IMG/VR virus record: IMGVR_UViG_2617270980_000009
Source of the DNA: a virus
Lineage: Duplodnaviria > Heunggongvirae > Uroviricota > Caudoviricetes
DNA: 11,347 nt
Reading direction: 5' to 3' (one strand)
Positions 484 through 11,347 of this stretch are shown here, one piece after another. Position 1 is the first letter of the stretch, and each line of letters begins with the position of its first letter. The translations under genes were made by a program, and so were the position numbers. Below the pieces are notes generated by a model. The model saw only the letters and a program-made list of their open reading frames with translations. It had not been told where the DNA came from and searched no databases.

Positions 484-2538
484 ATGTCAGACTCCAAGTG
501 GAAAATGCTCTCCGCCATGCCCGGAGAGTTTTCAGTCAAGGTTGCCGGTGGCACGGTGGCATTTATTGAAAGCCCTTTCCGCCCTTCGGGTAATAAAGGG
601 GGGATCACCTTCGCAGACTGCGTGATCCGCTTCAGCACGAAAGAGCCATTATGGGTAATGCCGGTATCCGGTAATCCCAGTGCAGAAATCACCAGTTCAG
701 GCGTGACTGGCATCATTCCAATCACATCTGACGTGGCCGGAACGCTCACGCCCTCCGACTGGAATGCACCGGATAACGCCGGGCCTTCCGGTAGCACGAA
801 TGGCAGCAGTTCAGAGCCGGAATATTACTTTGTTGTCATTCTCGCGGGTCAGTCAAATGGCATGGCCTACGGCGAGGGGCTGCCGTTACCGGATTCGTTT
901 GACCGCCCGGACCCACGCATTAAGCAACTGGCACGCCGCAGTACGGTAACGCCCAACGGTACGTCGTGTACATACAACGACATCATTCCGGCAGACCACT
1001 GCCTGCATGATGTTCAGGATATGAGCGGGATAAACCACCCGAAAGCTGATCTGGCAAAAGGCCAGTACGGGACTGTCGGTCAGGGGTTGCATATTGCCAA
1101 AAAACTGCTTCCCTATATCCCACAGAATGCGGGGATACTTCTGGTGCCCTGTTGTCGTGGCGGGGCAGCATTCACCACTGGAGCCGACGGCTCATTCAGT
1201 GAGGCCAGCGGTGCTTCCGCTGATTCTTCACGCTGGGGGGCCGGTAAACCTCTGTATCAGGACCTGGTAAGCCGCACCAAAGTCGCGCTGGCGAAAAACC
1301 CGAAAAACAAACTTCTGGCTGTGGTCTGGATGCAGGGAGAGGCAGACCTTGCCTCAGGAAGCCAGCAGCATAATAGTTTATTCACGGCCATGGTTCAGCA
1401 GTTCAGAACTGACCTGGCTCCGCTTGCTGCGCAGTGCGTGAGTGGAAATGCCACCACGGTGCCGTGGATTTGCGGTGATACCACGTATTACTGGAAAAAC
1501 GCTGGCACCGATAAATATGAGGCAGTATACGGTGGCTACAAAGGCAAGGAAGCACAGAAAATTTTCTTTGTACCGTTCCTGACGGATGAGAATGGACAGA
1601 GCACGCCAACGAATGCTCCGGCGGAAGACCCGGATATTGTGGCTGTCGGGTATTACGGTGCAGCATCCCGAACCCAGGGCAGTTTTGTTTCGACACAGCG
1701 TGACAGCCATTTCAGCTCATGGGCACGCAGGGGCGTCATTTCAGACCGTCTGGCCTCAGCTATTATGCTCCATGCAGGGCGCACGGCTGAACTGATGCGC
1801 GGGCAGACCGTGACACCACCGGATGAGAAGCCGTCACCTGATACACCATCAAAACCGTCCACGCCACCCGCAGACACCACGACGATGAGTACGCTATTTG
1901 CTTACCGGGCATCTGAGTCTGAAGGACGGTTGACACCACAGGGTTGGGCTGCCGGAGGTGGCAAGGCTCAAATCGTGGATGATGCCGGAGCTAGCGGGGG
2001 TAAGGCAATGAAACTGACCAAGGAAACAGGAAGAGCCCCCTGGTACCTTGAGCATGATGCTGGTAATGGTGCGGACCTGCTGGGTAAAGGTGGTCTTGTC
2101 AGTTGTCGTTTTAAACTCGATGGCGCGCTTACGGCTAATCAGTATGCACTGGCGCTGTACTGGCCGGTTTCTGCCCTGCCGCAAGGGGTTACTCTGGAAG
2201 GAAATGCCGGTCATAACCTGCTGGCATCGTTCTACGTACAGAGCGATGCCACAGACCTTAACGTGATGTATCACAAAGGAAACACGGCGCAGAACACGAA
2301 GCTGGGGTCATTCGGCGCATTTAATAACGAATGGCATACGCTGGGCTTCCGTTTTGCCGGTAACAACAGTATTGAGGTGACGCCGGTCATTGATGGTAAG
2401 GACGGGACACCATTCATGCTGTCGCAGTCTCCGGTCGGCACGTTTACGGCAGACAAGTTGCGCGTGACCGATATCACTAAAAATGCGACTTACCCGGTAC
2501 TGATTGACAGTATCGTGGTGGAAGTGAATAACGCGTAA
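484..2538 (+). CDS. SGNH/DUF303-family esterase, prophage NanS-p-like sialate (9-O-acetyl) O-acetylesterase, with a Pro/Thr-rich linker and a C-terminal ~230-aa beta-rich (lectin-like?) domain
   Basis: 684-aa ORF. A stop in the same frame at 448-450 makes the ATG at 484 the first available start; a weak SD (cagg/gaaaag) lies upstream. It carries a GQSN esterase motif (VVILAGQSNGMAYGEG) and downstream LLAVVWMQGEAD, typical of the sialate O-acetylesterase (SASA/DUF303) family. Linker TPPDEKPSPDTPSKPSTPPADTTT sits at about aa 440-465. The family assignment is from recall, not a search. Confidence 0.6.
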   Translation: MSDSKWKMLSAMPGEFSVKVAGGTVAFIESPFRPSGNKGGITFADCVIRFSTKEPLWVMPVSGNPSAEITSSGVTGIIPITSDVAGTLTPSDWNAPDNAGPSGSTNGSSSEPEYYFVVILAGQSNGMAYGEGLPLPDSFDRPDPRIKQLARRSTVTPNGTSCTYNDIIPADHCLHDVQDMSGINHPKADLAKGQYGTVGQGLHIAKKLLPYIPQNAGILLVPCCRGGAAFTTGADGSFSEASGASADSSRWGAGKPLYQDLVSRTKVALAKNPKNKLLAVVWMQGEADLASGSQQHNSLFTAMVQQFRTDLAPLAAQCVSGNATTVPWICGDTTYYWKNAGTDKYEAVYGGYKGKEAQKIFFVPFLTDENGQSTPTNAPAEDPDIVAVGYYGAASRTQGSFVSTQRDSHFSSWARRGVISDRLASAIMLHAGRTAELMRGQTVTPPDEKPSPDTPSKPSTPPADTTTMSTLFAYRASESEGRLTPQGWAAGGGKAQIVDDAGASGGKAMKLTKETGRAPWYLEHDAGNGADLLGKGGLVSCRFKLDGALTANQYALALYWPVSALPQGVTLEGNAGHNLLASFYVQSDATDLNVMYHKGNTAQNTKLGSFGAFNNEWHTLGFRFAGNNSIEVTPVIDGKDGTPFMLSQSPVGTFTADKLRVTDITKNATYPVLIDSIVVEVNNA

Positions 2539-2553
2539 GCAGGATAAAAAAAT

Positions 2554-2588
2554 CCCGCCGGTCAAAGAGCCATTTGTTGACTGGCGGG
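2554..2588. terminator. Hairpin (12-bp stem with one G-U pair, 11-nt loop) immediately 3' of the esterase gene; the T-tract is on the minus-strand side
   Basis: cccgccggtcaa (2554-2565) pairs with ttgactggcggg (2577-2588). On the plus strand it is preceded by aaaaaaa (2546-2552) and followed by non-U-rich sequence, so as an intrinsic terminator it reads better for leftward (minus-strand) transcription. Confidence 0.35.
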
Positions 2589-2703
2589 GGATATTCCAAA
2601 CCCATTAAGGAAAGCTACAACCTCTGACAAAGAAGACCATTATGTACGCGGTTACTTTTTAGCTGAAAACTGTTTCTGTAGTCAATATCAAAGGTAAGGT
2701 TAT

Positions 2704-2886
2704 ATGACATTTGTTCATACGATGCTGCTTTATTTCTGCACTGTGGTCAGTGCGTTATATCTGGTGAGCGGTGGTTATAAGGCCATCAGAAATTATGTTC
2801 GCCGCAAAATTGATGACGCAGCAGCTGAAAAGCTCAGTAAAACAGCGCAGGCAACTCCGCTCCCAAAAGACCCGACCCAGCCCTGA
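2704..2886 (+). CDS. Hypothetical small protein (60 aa) with one N-terminal hydrophobic helix and a charged Pro-rich tail
   Basis: ATG at 2704 preceded by aaggtaaggt (2691-2700). N-terminal MLLYFCTVVSALYLVSGG is hydrophobic. No family recognised. Confidence 0.45.
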   Translation: MTFVHTMLLYFCTVVSALYLVSGGYKAIRNYVRRKIDDAAAEKLSKTAQATPLPKDPTQP

Positions 2887-2921
2887 TTGCAGGGCTGTAT
2901 TCCCACATAAGGAGGATATAC

Positions 2922-3176
2922 ATGCCAGAGATTAAAGGCACCGTCACTGAAGTCCTGGTAAAACAGGCACTGTATTCCGGTGAAGTAAATAAATTACTGA
3001 AAGCGCAGGTCCGCAAGGATTTTGAGGCACAAATCGACACTTACGTTGATGAAGTGCTGGCAAAACTTATTGGGCCAGCAGTTGCGGCCAGTGATGCTGA
3101 TAATGAGCCGAAAACCGACGCGCAGCCAGAGCAACCAGACCCGGCTCAGCCCGGAACTGACAGTACCATGATGTAA
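2922..3176 (+). CDS. Hypothetical acidic protein (84 aa) with a Pro/Gln/Asp-rich C-terminus
   Basis: Consensus SD aaggagg (2909-2915) sits 6 nt upstream of ATG 2922. Followed by a short palindrome aaaccgg...ccggttt (3184-3208). No family recognised. Confidence 0.5.
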   Translation: MPEIKGTVTEVLVKQALYSGEVNKLLKAQVRKDFEAQIDTYVDEVLAKLIGPAVAASDADNEPKTDAQPEQPDPAQPGTDSTMM

Positions 3177-3343
3177 CAATACAAACCGGTGGTGTCCTCT
3201 GCCGGTTTGACACTAATGAAAACATCTTTGCCGCTATCCAGCCATATGTAATCGCTGGATAGTATTTCGTATTCAGAAATATAGCTGCTTATGGAGCAGT
3301 CAATCCTGCTTCCCCATCCGGGCAGGCAAATGAACCGGTATCA

Positions 3344-3637
3344 TTAGTCCGATTCACGCTTTTGTAGAATCGTTCCCAGAATGCTATACAGCTCATTAGC
3401 CTGTTGCTCCATCATTGAGACGGAGGCTATACGGTGCAAAGTGATTTCAGGAGGTGGCACACCTCCATCTTCTTGCTGTGGAGGAAAAACATAAGATTTA
3501 ATAAAAAAGTTGAAGCATATGAACTCTCCCGCACTCGAACTGTATTTGCAGGCATCTGAATAATCGGAAAAATAATCATTATAGATTTCCGCATTTTCAA
3601 TCATTTTTCGATTTCTCGTCGTTACATGATTGTCCAT
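3344..3637 (-). CDS. Hypothetical protein (97 aa) in an AT-rich island, transcribed divergently from the com/mom-like pair
   Basis: Minus-strand ORF with SD aagagg (reverse complement of 3643-3648) 5 nt upstream of its ATG (3637-3635). Codon usage is AT-rich and unlike the flanking lambdoid genes. No family recognised. Confidence 0.5.
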   Translation of the reverse strand: MDNHVTTRNRKMIENAEIYNDYFSDYSDACKYSSSAGEFICFNFFIKSYVFPPQQEDGGVPPPEITLHRIASVSMMEQQANELYSILGTILQKRESD

Positions 3638-3760
3638 AGCAGCCTCTTACGCTGGCAATTAACCAATTGACTTCTATAAATTAGTTGATTTGTTTGCTTT
3701 GCGGTATTCAAATGTACAATCATTCAGCACTTATGCGTTACAGCACCGTTTAAAATTAGT

Positions 3761-3850
3761 GATCAAACTCATAAATTTTCGCTAATGACATTTCGTGTTA
3801 TTTGTTGTATCAATTAAATAAATCAAATCGATCGTTTTTGTCGATCGATT
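3761..3850. promoter_or_regulatory. Putative regulatory region upstream of com: perfect inverted repeat AATCGATCG-n7-CGATCGATT (3826-3850) and three GATC (Dam) sites at 3761, 3830 and 3843
   Basis: Read directly from the sequence. Both arms contain the palindrome CGATCG. The region lies in the 256-bp AT-rich divergent intergenic space between the 97-aa ORF and com. Confidence 0.4.
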
Positions 3851-3893
3851 GAGTGATAAAGATATCAACAACAAAGCAGGAGGTTATGCGGCC

Positions 3894-4094
3894 ATGTATC
3901 GAAACATACGGTGCCGACATTGTAACAAGCTACTGGCACGAGCCAGCTTCAGTTATCTGGAAGTCAAATGTCCGCGCTGTAAAACCCTCAATCAAATCAC
4001 ATCTCAGAGCGCCACAGAGCACCCCACATACACAAGGAAATCCTGTCGTGGGGAACAGAAAGCAAGTTACATCCCGTATCATCAGCACGCCTGA
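3894..4094 (+). CDS. com: Com-like zinc-finger translational activator (phage Mu Com homolog), 66 aa
   Basis: [45 protein letters not shown]... aligns with Mu Com as I recall it (MKSIRCKNCNKLLFKADSFDHIEIRCPRCKRHII...EHPTEK), including the CxxC...CPRC zinc-binding cysteines. SD aggagg (3878-3883) is 10 nt upstream of ATG 3894. The track ORF start at 3849 is rejected because it has no SD. Confidence 0.7.
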
Positions 4095-4785: not shown

Positions 4786-5701
4786 ACGCTTAAAAACTCA
4801 TTCTAAAACTCAAAAGAAAAGCGCCGATTTAGTATCAAATAAGTTGCGTATCGGCGTTTTTCAGCGGTATCAAATGAAATGCAAATCGGTATCAAAAAAA
4901 TCGCCGCGCTATAGTATCCGTGAGAACGACGACGGCACGTATGCCATCACCGCCGTGCAGCATGTACCGGAAAAAGAGGCCATCGTGGATAACGGGGCGC
5001 ACTTTGACGGCGACCAGAGCGGCACGGTGAATGGTGTCACGCCGCCAGCGGTGCAGCACCTGACCGCCGAAGTCACCGCAGACAGCGGGGAATATCAGGT
5101 GCTGGCGCGCTGGGACACGCCGAAGGTGGTGAAGGGCGTGAACTTCCTGCTCCGTCTGACCGTAACAGCGGATGACGGCAGTGAGCGGCTGGTCAGCACG
5201 GCCCGGACGACGGAAACCACATACCGCTTCAGGCAACTGGCGCTGGGGCGTTACACGCTGACGGTCCGGGCGGTAAATGTGTGGGGACAGCAGGGCGATC
5301 CGGCGTCGGTATCGTTCCGGATTGCCGCCCCGGCAGCGCCGTCGCGGATTGAGCTGACGCCGGGCTATTTTCAGATAACTGCCACGCCGCATCTTGCGGT
5401 TTATGATCCGACGGTACAGTTTGAGTTCTGGTTCTCGGAAACGCGGATTACCGATATCAGGCAGGTTGAAACCACAGCCCGCTACCTTGGCACGGGACTG
5501 TACTGGATAGCCGCCAGTATCAATATCAAACCGGGCCATGATTATTATTTTTACGTTCGCAGTGTGAACACCGTTGGCAAATCGGCATTCGTGGAGGCCG
5601 TCGGTCAGCCGAGTGATGATGCAGAAGGCTACCTGGATTTTTTCAAAGGCAAGATACCGAATCCCATCTCGGTAAAGAGCTGCTGGAAAAAGTTGATCTG
5701 A
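4778..5701 (+). pseudogene. J: Lambda J-like host specificity (central tail fibre) gene, internal fragment: 5'-truncated remnant (J homology starts near 4907) ending at a frameshift
   Basis: From about codon 44 the translation ([35 protein letters not shown]...YLDFFKGK) matches the C-terminal third of lambda J as I recall it. The first ~43 codons are AT-rich junction sequence. A 1-nt loss near 5654-5657 (ata-ccg where a functional gene would read ata-acc-gaa) shifts the frame and gives a premature stop at 5699-5701. Confidence 0.8.
4821..4861 (+). terminator. Possible rho-independent terminator after the mom-like gene
   Basis: gcgccgat (4821-4828) pairs with atcggcg (4850-4856), followed by ttttt (4857-4861). 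The 21-nt loop is long, so confidence is low. Confidence 0.35.
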
Positions 5702-6700: not shown

Positions 6701-7300
6701 ATGCGTAAACTTTATGCCGCCATTTTGTCCGCAGCCATTTGTCTGGCCGTATCCGGTGCGCCTGCATGGGCATCTGAACATCAGTCCACGCTGAGCGCGG
6801 GGTATCTTCATGCCTCGACGAACGTTCCCGGCAGCGATGATCTTAACGGGATTAACGTGAAATACCGTTATGAGTTTACGGACACACTGGGGCTGGTGAC
6901 GTCATTCAGCTATGCAGGAGACAAGAATCGCCAGCTTACCCGTTACAGCGATACCCGCTGGCATGAAGATTCCGTGCGTAACCGCTGGTTCAGCGTGATG
7001 GTGGGGCCGTCTGTGCGCGTGAATGAATGGTTCAGCGCGTATGCGATGGCGGGTATGGCTTACAGCCGTGTGTCGACTTTCTCCGGGGATTATCTCCGCG
7101 TAACTGACAACAAGGGGAAAACGCACGACGTGCTGACCGGAAGTGATGACGGTCGCCACAGCAACACGTCTCTGGCGTGGGGAGCTGGCGTGCAGTTTAA
7201 CCCGACCGAATCCGTGGCCATTGATATTGCTTATGAAGGCTCCGGCAGTGGCGACTGGCGCACTGACGGTTTCATCGTGGGTGTCGGTTATAAGTTCTGA
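6701..7300 (+). CDS. lom: Lom outer-membrane protein (Ail/OmpX/PagC family beta-barrel), 199 aa with signal peptide
   Basis: Signal peptide [24 protein letters not shown]. Motifs [12 protein letters not shown] and the C-terminal [24 protein letters not shown] match lambda Lom from memory. SD agagg is 5 nt upstream. Position between J and stf is as in lambda. Confidence 0.9.
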
Positions 7301-7364: not shown

Positions 7365-10300
7365 ATGGCAGTAAAGATTTCAGGTGTACTGAAAGACGGC
7401 ACAGGAAAACCGGTACAGAACTGCACAATCCAGCTGAAAGCAAAACGTAACAGCACCGCGGTGGTGGTGAACACGCTGGCCTCAGAAAATCCGGATGAAG
7501 CCGGGCGTTACAGCATGGACGTTGAGTACGGTCAGTACAGCGTTATTCTGTTGGTGGAAGGATTCCCGCCGTCACATGCCGGGACCATCACCGTGTATGA
7601 AGATTCCCGACCCGGTACGCTGAATGATTTTCTCGGTGCCATGACGGAGGATGATGCCCGTCCGGAGGCTCTGCGCCGTTTTGAACTGATGGTGGAAGAG
7701 GTGGCGCGTAACGCGTCCGCGGTGGCACAGAACACGGCAGCCGCGAAGAAGTCAGCCGGCGATGCCGGCACATCTGCCCGTGAGGCGGCAACCCATGCGA
7801 CTGATGCTGCAGGCTCAGCACGCGCAGCCAGCACGTCAGCCGGACAGGCCGCTTCGTCGGCTCAGTCAGCGTCTTCCAGCGCAGGAACGGCATCAACAAA
7901 GGCCACTGAAGCGGAAAAAAGTGCTGCCGCTGCAGAGTCCTCAAAAAGCGCGGCAGCTACCAGTGCCAGTGCCGCGAAAACGTCAGAAACGAATGCTGCA
8001 GCGTCACAACAATCAGCAGCCACTTCTGCATCCACCGCGACTACGAAAGCGTCAGAAGCTGCCACCTCAGCCCGGGATGCGTCGGCTTCAAAAGAGGCGG
8101 CAAAATCATCAGAAACGAACGCATCCTCGAGCGCCAGTAGCGCAGCTTCCTCGGCAACGGCGGCAGCAAATTCCGCGAAGGCGGCAAAAACGTCCGAGAC
8201 GAACGCCAGGTCTTCTGAGACGGCAGCGGGACAGAGCGCCTCAGCTGCGGCAGGCTCAAAAACAGCGGCTGCGTCGTCTGCCAGTGCCGCGTCAACAAGT
8301 GCCGGGCAGGCCTCAGCCAGTGCCATCGCCGCCGGAAAATCGGCAGAAAGCGCCGCATCATCCGCTTCAACAGCCACAACGAAGGCTGGCGAAGCCACTG
8401 AACAGGCCAGCGCAGCAGCGAGGTCTGCTTCCGCAGCGAAGACATCCGAAACGAACGCGAAAGCGTCGGAAACCAGCGCAGAATCCTCAAAAACGGCAGC
8501 CGCATCGTCCGCCAGTTCGGCAGCGTCATCGGCATCATCTGCGTCTGCTTCAAAAGATGAGGCGACCAGACAGGCGTCAGCAGCGAAGGGCAGCGCCACG
8601 ACGGCATCCACGAAAGCAACAGAGGCGGCAGGCAGTGCGACGGCTGCATCTCAGAGCAAAACTGCTGCCGAATCTGCTGCGACTCGTGCAGAAGCTGCCG
8701 CTGATCGTGCTGAAGAGATTGCCGGTGCAGTTGCGATGGAAGACGCAAGCCTTACAACTAAAGGTGTTGTGAAACTTAGCAGTGCTGTCGATAGCACCAG
8801 TGAATCTTTAGCCGCGACACCAAAAGCAGTTAAGACCGCATATGATAATGCTGAAAAACGACTACAGAAGGATCAGAATGGTGCTGATATCCCCGACAAG
8901 GGCCGCTTCCTGAATAACATTAATGTTTACAGCAAAGGTGAAGTGGATCAGAAAAAGGGGATGCGATACGTTGTGGTAAATGCCCCGGCGGGTGTCCAGG
9001 AAGGTAAATATTATCCGTTAGTGATAAAAAGGAATGACAGCCATCGGGCATCCCGCGTTGTCATTTCAACGCCAAGTCGCACAGCTAATCACAGAATGAA
9101 TAACTGTGAGTTTAATGGTTTTGTTTGCGCAGGCGGCTGGACGGACCGGGGTAGCTATGCCTGTGGTATGTTCTGGGCTTATTCATCATCGGAACGCGCT
9201 ATTCATTCCATTCTGATGAGTAATAAAGGCGATACCGTAGACAGCGTATTCTATATAGAAGGTGGGGCATTTCCCGTAGAGGTCTTTTTAGAAGAAGGAC
9301 TTTCTGTTACTGCTCCTGCTTCTGATTATGTTGTTGCTGAAACGACTTATAAATTTGGCGCAACTGATCCTTATTCTGAATCAGTTGCGGTAAATTTAAT
9401 TTTAGATTTTAAACAAGGTAATGGATTTTATAGTTCGTATCCTGTTTTGAGTAAGTCAGACATTAGCGGTAATAAGGTTTACGCTAATGATGAAGTTATT
9501 GTCCGTAGTCAGAATGCGTTAAGGATGATTGCTGGCGATTACGGTGTCATATGGCGAAATGATGGAGCAAATACTTACTTGCTCATGACTGATAAAGGCG
9601 ACCAGTACGGTGGCTGGAACGGTCTTCGACCATTTGCAGTAAATAACGCAACAGGTGAAGTGACGATCAATACACCACTTAATTCTCCAAAAGGGGTTAA
9701 GGGGAACTCTGATACAGCTACGAAACTTCAGACTGCAAGAAAAATATCCGGTGTTCCATTTGATGGCTCTACTGATATCACTTTAACCGCCGCGCATGTT
9801 GCCGCTTTCGCAAGAAGAGCAACAGGGTCATATGCTGATGCTGATGGCGGCGTGCCGTGGAATGCTGAATCTGGTGCTTATAATGTAACTAGAACGGGCG
9901 ACAGCTATATTCTGGTTAACTTCTATACCGGAGTCGGAAGTTGCCGGACCTTGCAGATGAAGGCGCATTACAGAAATGGTGGTCTGTTCTACCGTTCTTC
10001 AAGAGACGGTTATGGTTTTGAGGAAGACTGGGCAGAAGTTTATACCTCGAAAAATCTTCCACCAGAAAGCTACCCAGTCGGCGCACCAATCCCGTGGCCA
10101 TCAGATACCGTTCCGTCTGGTTATGCTCTGATGCAGGGGCAGACTTTTGACAAATCTGCCTACCCGAAACTTGCAGCCGCTTATCCGTCAGGCGTGATCC
10201 CTGATATGCGTGGCTGGACGATTAAGGGCAAGCCCGCCAGTGGTCGTGCCGTATTGTCTCAGGAACAGGACGGCATAAAATCGCATACCCACAGCGCCAG

Positions 10301-10763
10301 CGCATCCAGTACGGATTTGGGGACGAAAACCACATCGTCGTTTGATTACGGAACCAAATCCACGAATAACACCGGGGCGCATACCCATAGTATTAGCGGG
10401 ACCGCAAATAGTGCCGGCGCGCACCAACACAAGAGTTCCGGTGCATTTGGTGGCACGAACACGAGCATTTTCCCTAATGGTTATACCGCGATTTCAAATC
10501 CAAGCGCGGGGATTATGAGCACAACAAGCGGTAGTGGCCAGACTCGTAATGCAGGGAAGACATCATCAGATGGTGCTCATACCCACTCGCTGTCCGGCAC
10601 TGCTGCAAGCGCAGGCGCACATGCACATACTGTCGGTATTGGTGCTCATACGCACTCCGTTGCGATTGGCTCACATGGACACACCATCACCGTTAACGCT
10701 GCGGGTAACGCGGAAAACACCGTCAAAAACATCGCATTTAACTATATTGTGAGGCTTGCATAA
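7365..10763 (+). CDS. stf: Side tail fibre protein Stf (lambda Stf / T4 gp37-like), 1132 aa, mosaic with an extended Ala/Ser-rich repeat region and an inserted low-GC central domain
   Basis: N-terminus [26 protein letters not shown]...[16 protein letters not shown] and C-terminus ...[31 protein letters not shown] match lambda Stf from memory. His-x-His repeats (GAHTHS, GAHAHT, GAHTHS, GSHGHT) are present near the C-terminus. The stop overlaps the tfa start (taATG at 10761-10765). Confidence 0.9.
7730..8700 (+). repeat. Low-complexity, GC-rich Ala/Ser/Thr repeat region inside stf, with recurring AAKTSETNA-type units
   Basis: Motifs such as [20 protein letters not shown] and KTAAASSAS recur in the translation. 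The same repetitive DNA yields long spurious ORFs in other frames and on the minus strand. Confidence 0.6.
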
Positions 10764-11347
10764 TGGCATTCAGAATGAGTGAACAAGCACGGACCATAAA
10801 AATTTATAATCTGCTGGCCGGAACTAATGAATTTATTGGTGAAGGTGACGCATATATTCCGCCTCATACAGGTCTGCCAGCAAACAGTACCGATATTGCA
10901 CCACCAGATATTCCGGCAGGCTTCGTGGCTGTTTTCAACAGTGATGAGGCATCGTGGCATCTCGTTGAAGACCATCGGGGTAAAACGGTTTATGACGTGG
11001 CTTCCGGCGACGCGTTATTTATTTCTGAACTCGGTCCGTTACCGGAAAATGTTACCTGGTTGTCGCCGGGAGGGGAATATCAGAAGTGGAACGGCACAGC
11101 CTGGGTGAATGATACGGAAGCAGAAAAACTGTTCCGGATCCGGGAGGCAGAAGAAACAAAAAACAGCCTGATGCAGGTAGCCAGTGAGCATATTGCGCCA
11201 CTTCAGGATGCTGTAGATCTGGAAATCGCAACGGAGGAAGAAACCTTGTTGCTGGAAGCCTGGAAAAAGTATCGGGTGTTGCTGAACCGTGTTAATACAA
11301 CAACTGCACCGGATATTGAATGGCCAACAGTACCCATTATCGAATAG
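10763..11347 (+). CDS. tfa: Tail fibre assembly chaperone Tfa, 194 aa; the stop codon is the last three bases of the window
   Basis: [79 protein letters not shown]... is near-identical to lambda Tfa as I recall it. Translationally coupled to stf. Confidence 0.9.

Follow-up and report, generated by a model that had tools for sequence, protein, structure and literature searches.

We examined a 97-codon open reading frame (ORF) that lies next to, and divergent from, the com and mom genes in an 11,347-nucleotide stretch of viral DNA (IMG/VR virus record IMGVR_UViG_2617270980_000009; this whole stretch is referred to below as the window). We found that this ORF is a real protein-coding gene, and we conclude with good confidence that it is a cargo ("moron") gene, based on its replacement between collinear phages, the sharp boundaries of the block in which it lies, the low GC content of this block and the hairpins at its 3′ end. 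The block lies in a Mu-like transposable prophage, near its right end. By sequence homology we assign the gene, also with good confidence, to the family formed by the first genes (A) of a three-gene A-B-C cassette, although in the Mu-like lineage A is solo. Overall, we favor, with moderate confidence, the explanation that the gene is the payload of a cargo block and encodes a solo, small binding protein of the A family that is independent of com/mom.

Results

A replaceable cargo block adjoins com and mom

The limits of the block (Table 1) emerged from a three-way alignment of collinear Mu-like prophages, in which the flanking sequences are conserved up to ~3212 and again from ~3800, 94 bp ahead of the com ATG, and the ~590 bp between these flanks are unrelated across the three genomes. 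The GC content of the block is low compared to that of the sequence to its left (52.2%) and that of com-mom (46.6%), and the ORF itself (39.8%, compared to 52% in the prophage DNA to its left) is AT-rich, as had been stated in a preliminary description of this DNA. Moreover, the slot holds different genes in other E. coli strains: in M18, an unrelated gene on the minus strand whose 175-aa product has a zinc ribbon, and in 2013C-4081, another unrelated minus-strand gene, which is disrupted. Since the slot is filled by unrelated leftward alternatives, the block is independent of com/mom. We also noted that a DNA cytosine methyltransferase gene takes the place of mom behind com and its conserved control region in 2013C-4081 (L021:5096-6302). 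Thus, the payload controlled by Com is itself exchangeable.

The right end of phage Mu resembles this arrangement in that it has a slot between the tail-fiber region and com and the same GATC-rich control region upstream of com; the segment from 3800 to 3893 aligns with the GATC-rich gin-com region of Mu. In contrast, Mu has a rightward gene here, that of the gin invertase, and only a 94-bp spacer. With the start of com at 3894 (Prokaryotic Genome Annotation Pipeline [PGAP] coordinates transferred from L001), the divergent intergenic region between the ORF and com extends from 3638 to 3893 and measures 256 bp, the length previously given for it. The preliminary description had this region shared with com, which is correct for the com-proximal 94 bp (3800–3893), but not for the ORF-proximal 162 bp, which are swappable cargo.

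The position and AT-rich composition of the ORF had led to the proposal that its product is an accessory of com/mom, which could be a regulator of mom (acting, for instance, through the shared control region), a partner of Mom or an immunity protein. In accord with this proposal, close copies of the ORF all adjoin com, always divergent to it and between DUF826 and com, and com, mom and DUF826 are present in the ten close copies from IMG/VR. A leftward gene in this place might also be tied to the switch of the mom control region. However, co-occurrence with com/mom, which the preliminary description offered as a check, failed in the opposite direction: among 233 complete E. coli genomes that have this com control region, the ORF is present in just 18 and missing from 215. 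Moreover, collinear prophages fill the slot with unrelated genes, one of them with com driving a cytosine methyltransferase; Mu has gin at this position; the ORF-proximal 162 bp are specific to the block and are not com/mom DNA; and none of the distant family members that we examined is near com or mom. We consider an accessory role very unlikely in the face of these results, and the pairing of the ORF with com/mom appears, with good confidence, to be positional rather than functional.

The ORF belongs to a family that heads a three-gene cassette

The preliminary description had recognized no motif in the protein, and our searches bear this out, since Pfam, PHROGs, NCBIfam, PADLOC and PDB sequences all yielded no match; the only near-match in these libraries was phrog_7175 (E 0.26). 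A search of PDB sequences with the family profile also returned no match, and PADLOC-DB 2.0 returned none for the window protein, the A proteins of the cassettes, B or C. An exhaustive HMMER search of 1.84e9 representatives recovered nothing beyond the family, apart from a single distant member, P0015 (E 1.9e-4). A profile search of 5.8e9 proteins recovered 34 clusters, and all of those that are named to species are from Enterobacterales. The family is thus very small, and its carriers are phages and prophages. The relatives are 21–29% identical to the ORF protein, the BLASTP match to the protein of phage vB_EcoS-733R5 extends over 80 aa (E 5e-11), and a joint profile recovers all of the subfamilies. 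A search of plasmids revealed no homologue of the ORF protein, and we found no mention of the protein accession in the literature searched.

In every distant subfamily that we examined, the relative is gene A (~100 aa), the first in a tight A-B-C cassette in which B specifies 80–95 aa (phrog_17259) and C specifies 123–132 aa (phrog_5954). We found these cassettes downstream of cI in lambdoid prophages (P0015, P0032), at the end of Klebsiella prophages by retron reverse-transcriptase or HNH genes, in phage vB_EcoS-733R5, at one end of a prophage whose baseplate genes are of the Mu type, beside an Mrr-type nuclease within a myovirus tail module, in an E. coli locus where an insertion sequence (IS) interrupts C, and on short metagenomic contigs and at two IMG/VR loci. 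The cI-N region is a hotspot for abortive-infection and defense genes such as rexAB and bstA (PMC8585504). In Klebsiella (L010-L015, ~8600–11700), the region by the cassette varies by strain, holding a retron-type reverse transcriptase, an HNH-like gene or others, which fits a defense-gene hotspot.

Among the three cassette proteins, C is the most conserved, with 41–54% identity between subfamilies and invariant GRNKFSDD and HCLWHYH motifs, while B is conserved at its C-terminus only; neither B nor C has a known relative. We considered that C might be a toxin of the RelE/ParE type, but rejected this idea because hhalign gave probabilities of <2% against RelE, YoeB, ParE, HigB and YafQ, and because Pfam, NCBIfam and PDB were negative for C as well. 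A different arrangement is present in Yersinia phage vB_YenM_30.14 (L032:2810-3809), where cI is followed by an unrelated Cys-rich 106-aa gene (phrog_4293) and then by homologues of B (hhalign 93.5%) and C (45% identity). Since the Cys-rich gene is in the place of A in this phage, the first gene of the cassette appears to be exchangeable.

The window protein is like cassette A in its homology, its N-terminal motif and its predicted fold, but differs from it in sequence (21–29% identity) and in its surroundings, since B and C are missing both beside the Mu-like copy and from the rest of the prophage. With tblastn, using 6–7 versions each of B and C, we found neither gene in the window, in L001 or L002, in the complete prophage of CI5 or in the ten IMG/VR copies.

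Allele comparison shows that the ORF is a gene and favors an upstream start

The list of ORFs in the window has many of ~100 aa, and thus the length of this ORF alone is weak evidence of coding. The preliminary description had called the ORF a well-formed gene, and we confirmed that the ATG and the Shine-Dalgarno sequence AAGAGG (CCTCTT at 3643–3648 on the plus strand) are present. We then compared the ORF to the allele in E. coli CI5, in which the reading frame is kept and the ORF is 85% identical, compared to 61% identity with insertions and deletions in the 3′ flank. The ratio of nonsynonymous to synonymous substitution rates (dN/dS) between the window and CI5 alleles is 0.33 in the frame of the ORF, compared to 0.66 and 1.25 in the other two frames, and falls to 0.24 in the core (codons 13–92); constraint on the first 12 codons is weak. 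These results, together with the remote homologues and with the confident core obtained by structure prediction (a check that the preliminary description had proposed), show that the ORF is a real protein-coding gene. That it is instead a chance ORF in AT-rich intergenic DNA, as the abundance of spurious ORFs of similar length in the window and the lack of a family match in the libraries might suggest, is contradicted by the conserved frame, dN/dS, remote homologues and confident fold, and has practically no chance of being correct.

The gene is annotated by RefSeq/PGAP as 86 aa from Met12 (L001:12195-12455). However, in the 100-aa product of the CI5 allele, residue 12 is Thr rather than Met, whereas ATG1 and its AAGAGG Shine-Dalgarno sequence are retained, and for this reason we prefer the 97-aa reading to that of 86 aa. 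Based on this comparison, the annotated Met12 start is probably wrong in most records.

We also noted that the truncated alleles P0011 and P0014 share an almost identical foreign peptide at their ends (…NDSNLLIVFYVQIMPDD…), which begins after residue 67 in one of them and after residue 37 in the other. This pattern suggests that elements of one kind inserted into the gene twice, independently.

The protein is small and acidic, with a predicted sheet-plus-helix core

The ORF protein has a net charge of -6 and an isoelectric point (pI) of 4.7, and most of its relatives are likewise acidic. AlphaFold2, supplied with a 22-sequence alignment, produced a model with a predicted local distance difference test (pLDDT) score of 75 overall and >80 for residues 25–97, in which three antiparallel beta-strands (26–34, 37–50 and 64–76) are followed by a long C-terminal helix (77–96). 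The N-terminus is disordered in the model; residues 1–12 are a variable tail, and residues 13–28, inside the disordered part, hold a conserved N-terminal motif, IENxxxFxDxFxDY.

Foldseek found no match in PDB for this model. We did see some similarity to the dimeric sheet-plus-helix folds of the COMM-domain and PC4 types, but the scores are marginal, the identity is 5–12%, the acidity of the protein speaks against it and Foldseek does not support it; as judged from the model, this is a resemblance and not membership. If the protein were nonetheless a single-stranded nucleic-acid binder like PC4, Pur-alpha or Whirly, it would act on phage or host DNA or RNA. We regard such a binder as very unlikely, because the charge of the protein is wrong for it: a net charge of -6, a pI of 4.7 and an acidic family are the opposite of a nucleic-acid binder, and the empty Foldseek result speaks against it as well. 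We also considered and rejected a type II antitoxin, since there is no adjacent partner gene, the three strands and helix are not a helix-turn-helix (HTH), ribbon-helix-helix (RHH) or AbrB fold, and no antitoxin was matched.

Hairpins follow the gene, but no convincing leftward promoter was found upstream

Two hairpins lie downstream of the ORF (Table 1), whose 3′ untranslated region (UTR) has a folding z of -3.6. The 8-bp hairpin is at the left edge of the cargo block and is followed by a U-rich tract, making it a candidate bidirectional terminator for both the DUF826 gene and the ORF. An Rfam scan of the window found no match near the 97-codon ORF.

In the region upstream of the ORF, the extended -10 sequence TGaTATCTT at 3864–3859 was considered as a leftward promoter and rejected, as it is lost in the CI5 allele. 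We also noted a rightward promoter-like sequence, TTTGCT-16-TACAAT at 3693–3720, which is kept in CI5; it is ~170 bp upstream of the com ATG and points toward com/mom. The mom region of Mu has the divergent promoters momP1 and momP2, and thus a documented leftward promoter (PMC4287176). In contrast, we could not identify an equivalent of momP2 in the window, and none is conserved between the alleles. That transcription of the ORF might have a momP2-like origin is therefore a conjecture, made by analogy to Mu.

Table 1. Coordinates of the ORF, the cargo block and neighboring features in the window
Feature	Positions	Strand	Remarks
ORF, 97 aa, solo "A" gene, acidic protein (pI 4.7)	3344–3637	-	ATG start
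Shine-Dalgarno sequence AAGAGG	3643–3648	-	5 nt before ATG1; kept in the CI5 allele
Swap-in cargo block, GC 39.4%	3213–3799		ORF, 3′ UTR and 162-bp block-specific upstream region
Block-specific upstream region	3638–3799		Window and CI5 alleles share 88% identity
Hairpin, 9-bp stem (CTATCCAGC / GCTGGATAG)	3234–3262	-	In the 3′ UTR of the ORF
Hairpin, 8-bp, GC-rich (CAAACCGG...CCGGTTTG)	3182–3209		Between the convergent DUF826 gene and the ORF
Conserved com/mom control region	3800–3893	+	Common to other Mu-like prophages; GATC at 3830 and 3843
com, 66 aa, PF10122	3894–4094	+	Neighbor, outside the cargo block
mom, 245 aa, PF25680	4048–4785	+	Neighbor, outside the cargo block
Right end of the Mu-like prophage	4786–4913		Identical to the E. 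coli JE86-ST05 copy up to 4913

The block is carried by a Mu-like prophage inserted into a lambdoid prophage

From position 1 to ~4913, the window consists of the right end of the Mu-like prophage, which is inserted into a lambdoid J gene. An identical right end in JE86-ST05 interrupts citF, and past 4913 the two sequences part, with the lambdoid J gene flank in the window and citF in JE86-ST05. The Mu-like prophage of E. coli CI5, which interrupts xdhA, has the order repressor, small helix-turn-helix gene, MuA, MuB, Gam, Mor, Mu-type head/tail genes, com and mom, and another allele, P0009, was seen in this arrangement at six additional sites in the chromosome. Thus, from its insertions at several distinct sites, the carrier phage has inserted many times.

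The window therefore contains a prophage within a prophage, in which the Mu-like element ends at ~4913 inside the tail-tip gene J and its insertion splits the J gene of the lambdoid prophage. The C-terminal Ig domains of J resume at ~4914, and are followed by lom (6701–7300), stf (7365–10763) and tfa (from 10763). At the end of the window, the tail-fiber assembly gene contains a full-length match to Rfam IS009 (RF02111; 230.8 bits; 11106–11304, plus strand). On the other side of the cargo slot, the segment from 484 to 3176 contains a gene for a NanS-like esterase (SASA and DUF6645 domains, 684 aa), DUF1378 and DUF826. This block is typical of the late regions of Shiga toxin (Stx)/lambdoid phages, yet here it is in a Mu-like prophage, between the tail-fiber genes and the cargo slot; its composition suggests an exchange of modules between phage types.

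Discussion

Morons and their hotspots in other phages include rexAB of lambda and bstA of BTP1, both downstream of cI, lom and bor of lambda, and the hotspots of P2 and P4. The block described here is like them in being self-contained and low in GC, in being present or absent among collinear phages, in lying on the strand opposite to the structural and late genes and in having its own 3′ hairpins; moreover, relatives of the ORF are in the cI-N slot that rexAB and bstA occupy. It differs in that the ORF protein is unrelated to any characterized moron product, and in that no convincing promoter was found for the gene.

The mechanistic part of our preferred explanation, in which the payload of the cargo block acts as a solo A-family binding protein, comprises the following proposals, in each of which we place low confidence. 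The ORF would be transcribed leftward on its own, with transcription stopping at the 3′ hairpins and the shared terminator. Its protein would act by protein binding, via a dimeric beta-alpha core and the N-terminal motif, and would be a stand-alone regulator or neutralizer in phage-phage or phage-host conflict, rather than an enzyme or an effector. In the cassettes of the relatives, B-C may form the conserved core and A an exchangeable front module. The small size (97 aa), the pI of 4.7 and the mostly acidic family support a binder over an enzyme. The preliminary description had proposed a regulator, immunity or anti-defense factor of the com/mom cassette; while its link to com/mom was not supported, a role in phage conflict is plausible because the only relatives of the gene sit in classical prophage defense slots.

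Several results weigh against this explanation. We found no convincing leftward sigma-70 promoter in 3638–3893 by consensus scan, position weight matrix scan or a check for a -10 element conserved between the alleles, and the dN/dS estimate relies on only ~32 substitutions. The alleles P0011-P0014 in the databases are truncated, frameshifted or otherwise disrupted, and the gene is rare, with 18 carriers among 5426 complete E. coli genomes; the gene is thus dispensable and is sometimes lost. Moreover, the mechanistic part of the explanation comes from context only, for A, B and C alike, and is held with low confidence.

We considered that the product might be the effector itself, that is, a stand-alone prophage defense or superinfection-exclusion protein that blocks incoming phages in the lysogen. 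Many morons in slots of this type do block incoming phages. The low-GC block with its own 3′ hairpins in a moron-type slot is in line with such an effector, as is the location of the relatives by retron, HNH and Mrr genes and in the cI-N (rex/bstA) position (PMC8585504 for the slot). However, PADLOC has no match, and the protein, at 97 aa and acidic, has no catalytic or membrane features. Furthermore, the most conserved part of the cassette is C rather than A, and therefore C is the likeliest effector, not A. We view a defense effector as a minor possibility, though one with more in its favor than the other alternatives.

It is also conceivable, although unlikely, that the gene is a hitchhiking relic, either an A that survives from an A-B-C cassette otherwise lost to decay or a gene that no longer has a function. 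The gene is solo here, compared to A-B-C in all of the other subfamilies examined, and a relic would be consistent with the disrupted alleles, the rarity of the gene and the failure to find a promoter. In contrast, the core is under purifying selection (dN/dS 0.24), the N-terminal motif and hydrophobic core are kept relative to homologues of 21–29% identity, intact copies are present in prophages at many independent insertion sites, and no remnants of B or C are found downstream of the ORF.

A more specific idea, which we hold to be rather improbable, is that A-B-C is a new defense or toxin-antitoxin-like system and that the Mu-like phage carries A alone as an orphan antidote against the B-C systems of resident prophages. 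In such a system, B-C would be the conserved core and A would be an exchangeable front part that controls or neutralizes it, and the captured A would serve the phage as an anti-defense protein. Three-component toxin-antitoxin or regulator modules are known, for example paaR2-paaA2-parE2 and omega-epsilon-zeta. The cassettes are like these modules in that A, B and C are three small, packed or overlapping genes on mobile elements, with the strongest conservation in the last gene and rapid evolution in the middle one. The likeness ends with the proteins, since C has no similarity to RelE, ParE, YoeB, HigB or YafQ (hhalign <2%) or to PDB sequences, and A has no HTH, RHH or AbrB fold.

An uncharacterized prophage cargo gene is ordinary in itself, and for this one we propose a corrected start codon. 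The analysis also identifies, beside com/mom, a slot of variable cargo in the Mu-like prophages of E. coli, and it links the gene in this slot to an unstudied three-gene cassette that occupies rexAB/bstA positions and is absent from current defense catalogues. If A-B-C is a defense or toxin-antitoxin system, then this copy of A would be a natural experiment that shows what the first component does by itself. Should the orphan-antidote idea be true, the right end of this phage, with its anti-restriction gene mom, would be a small counter-defense locus.
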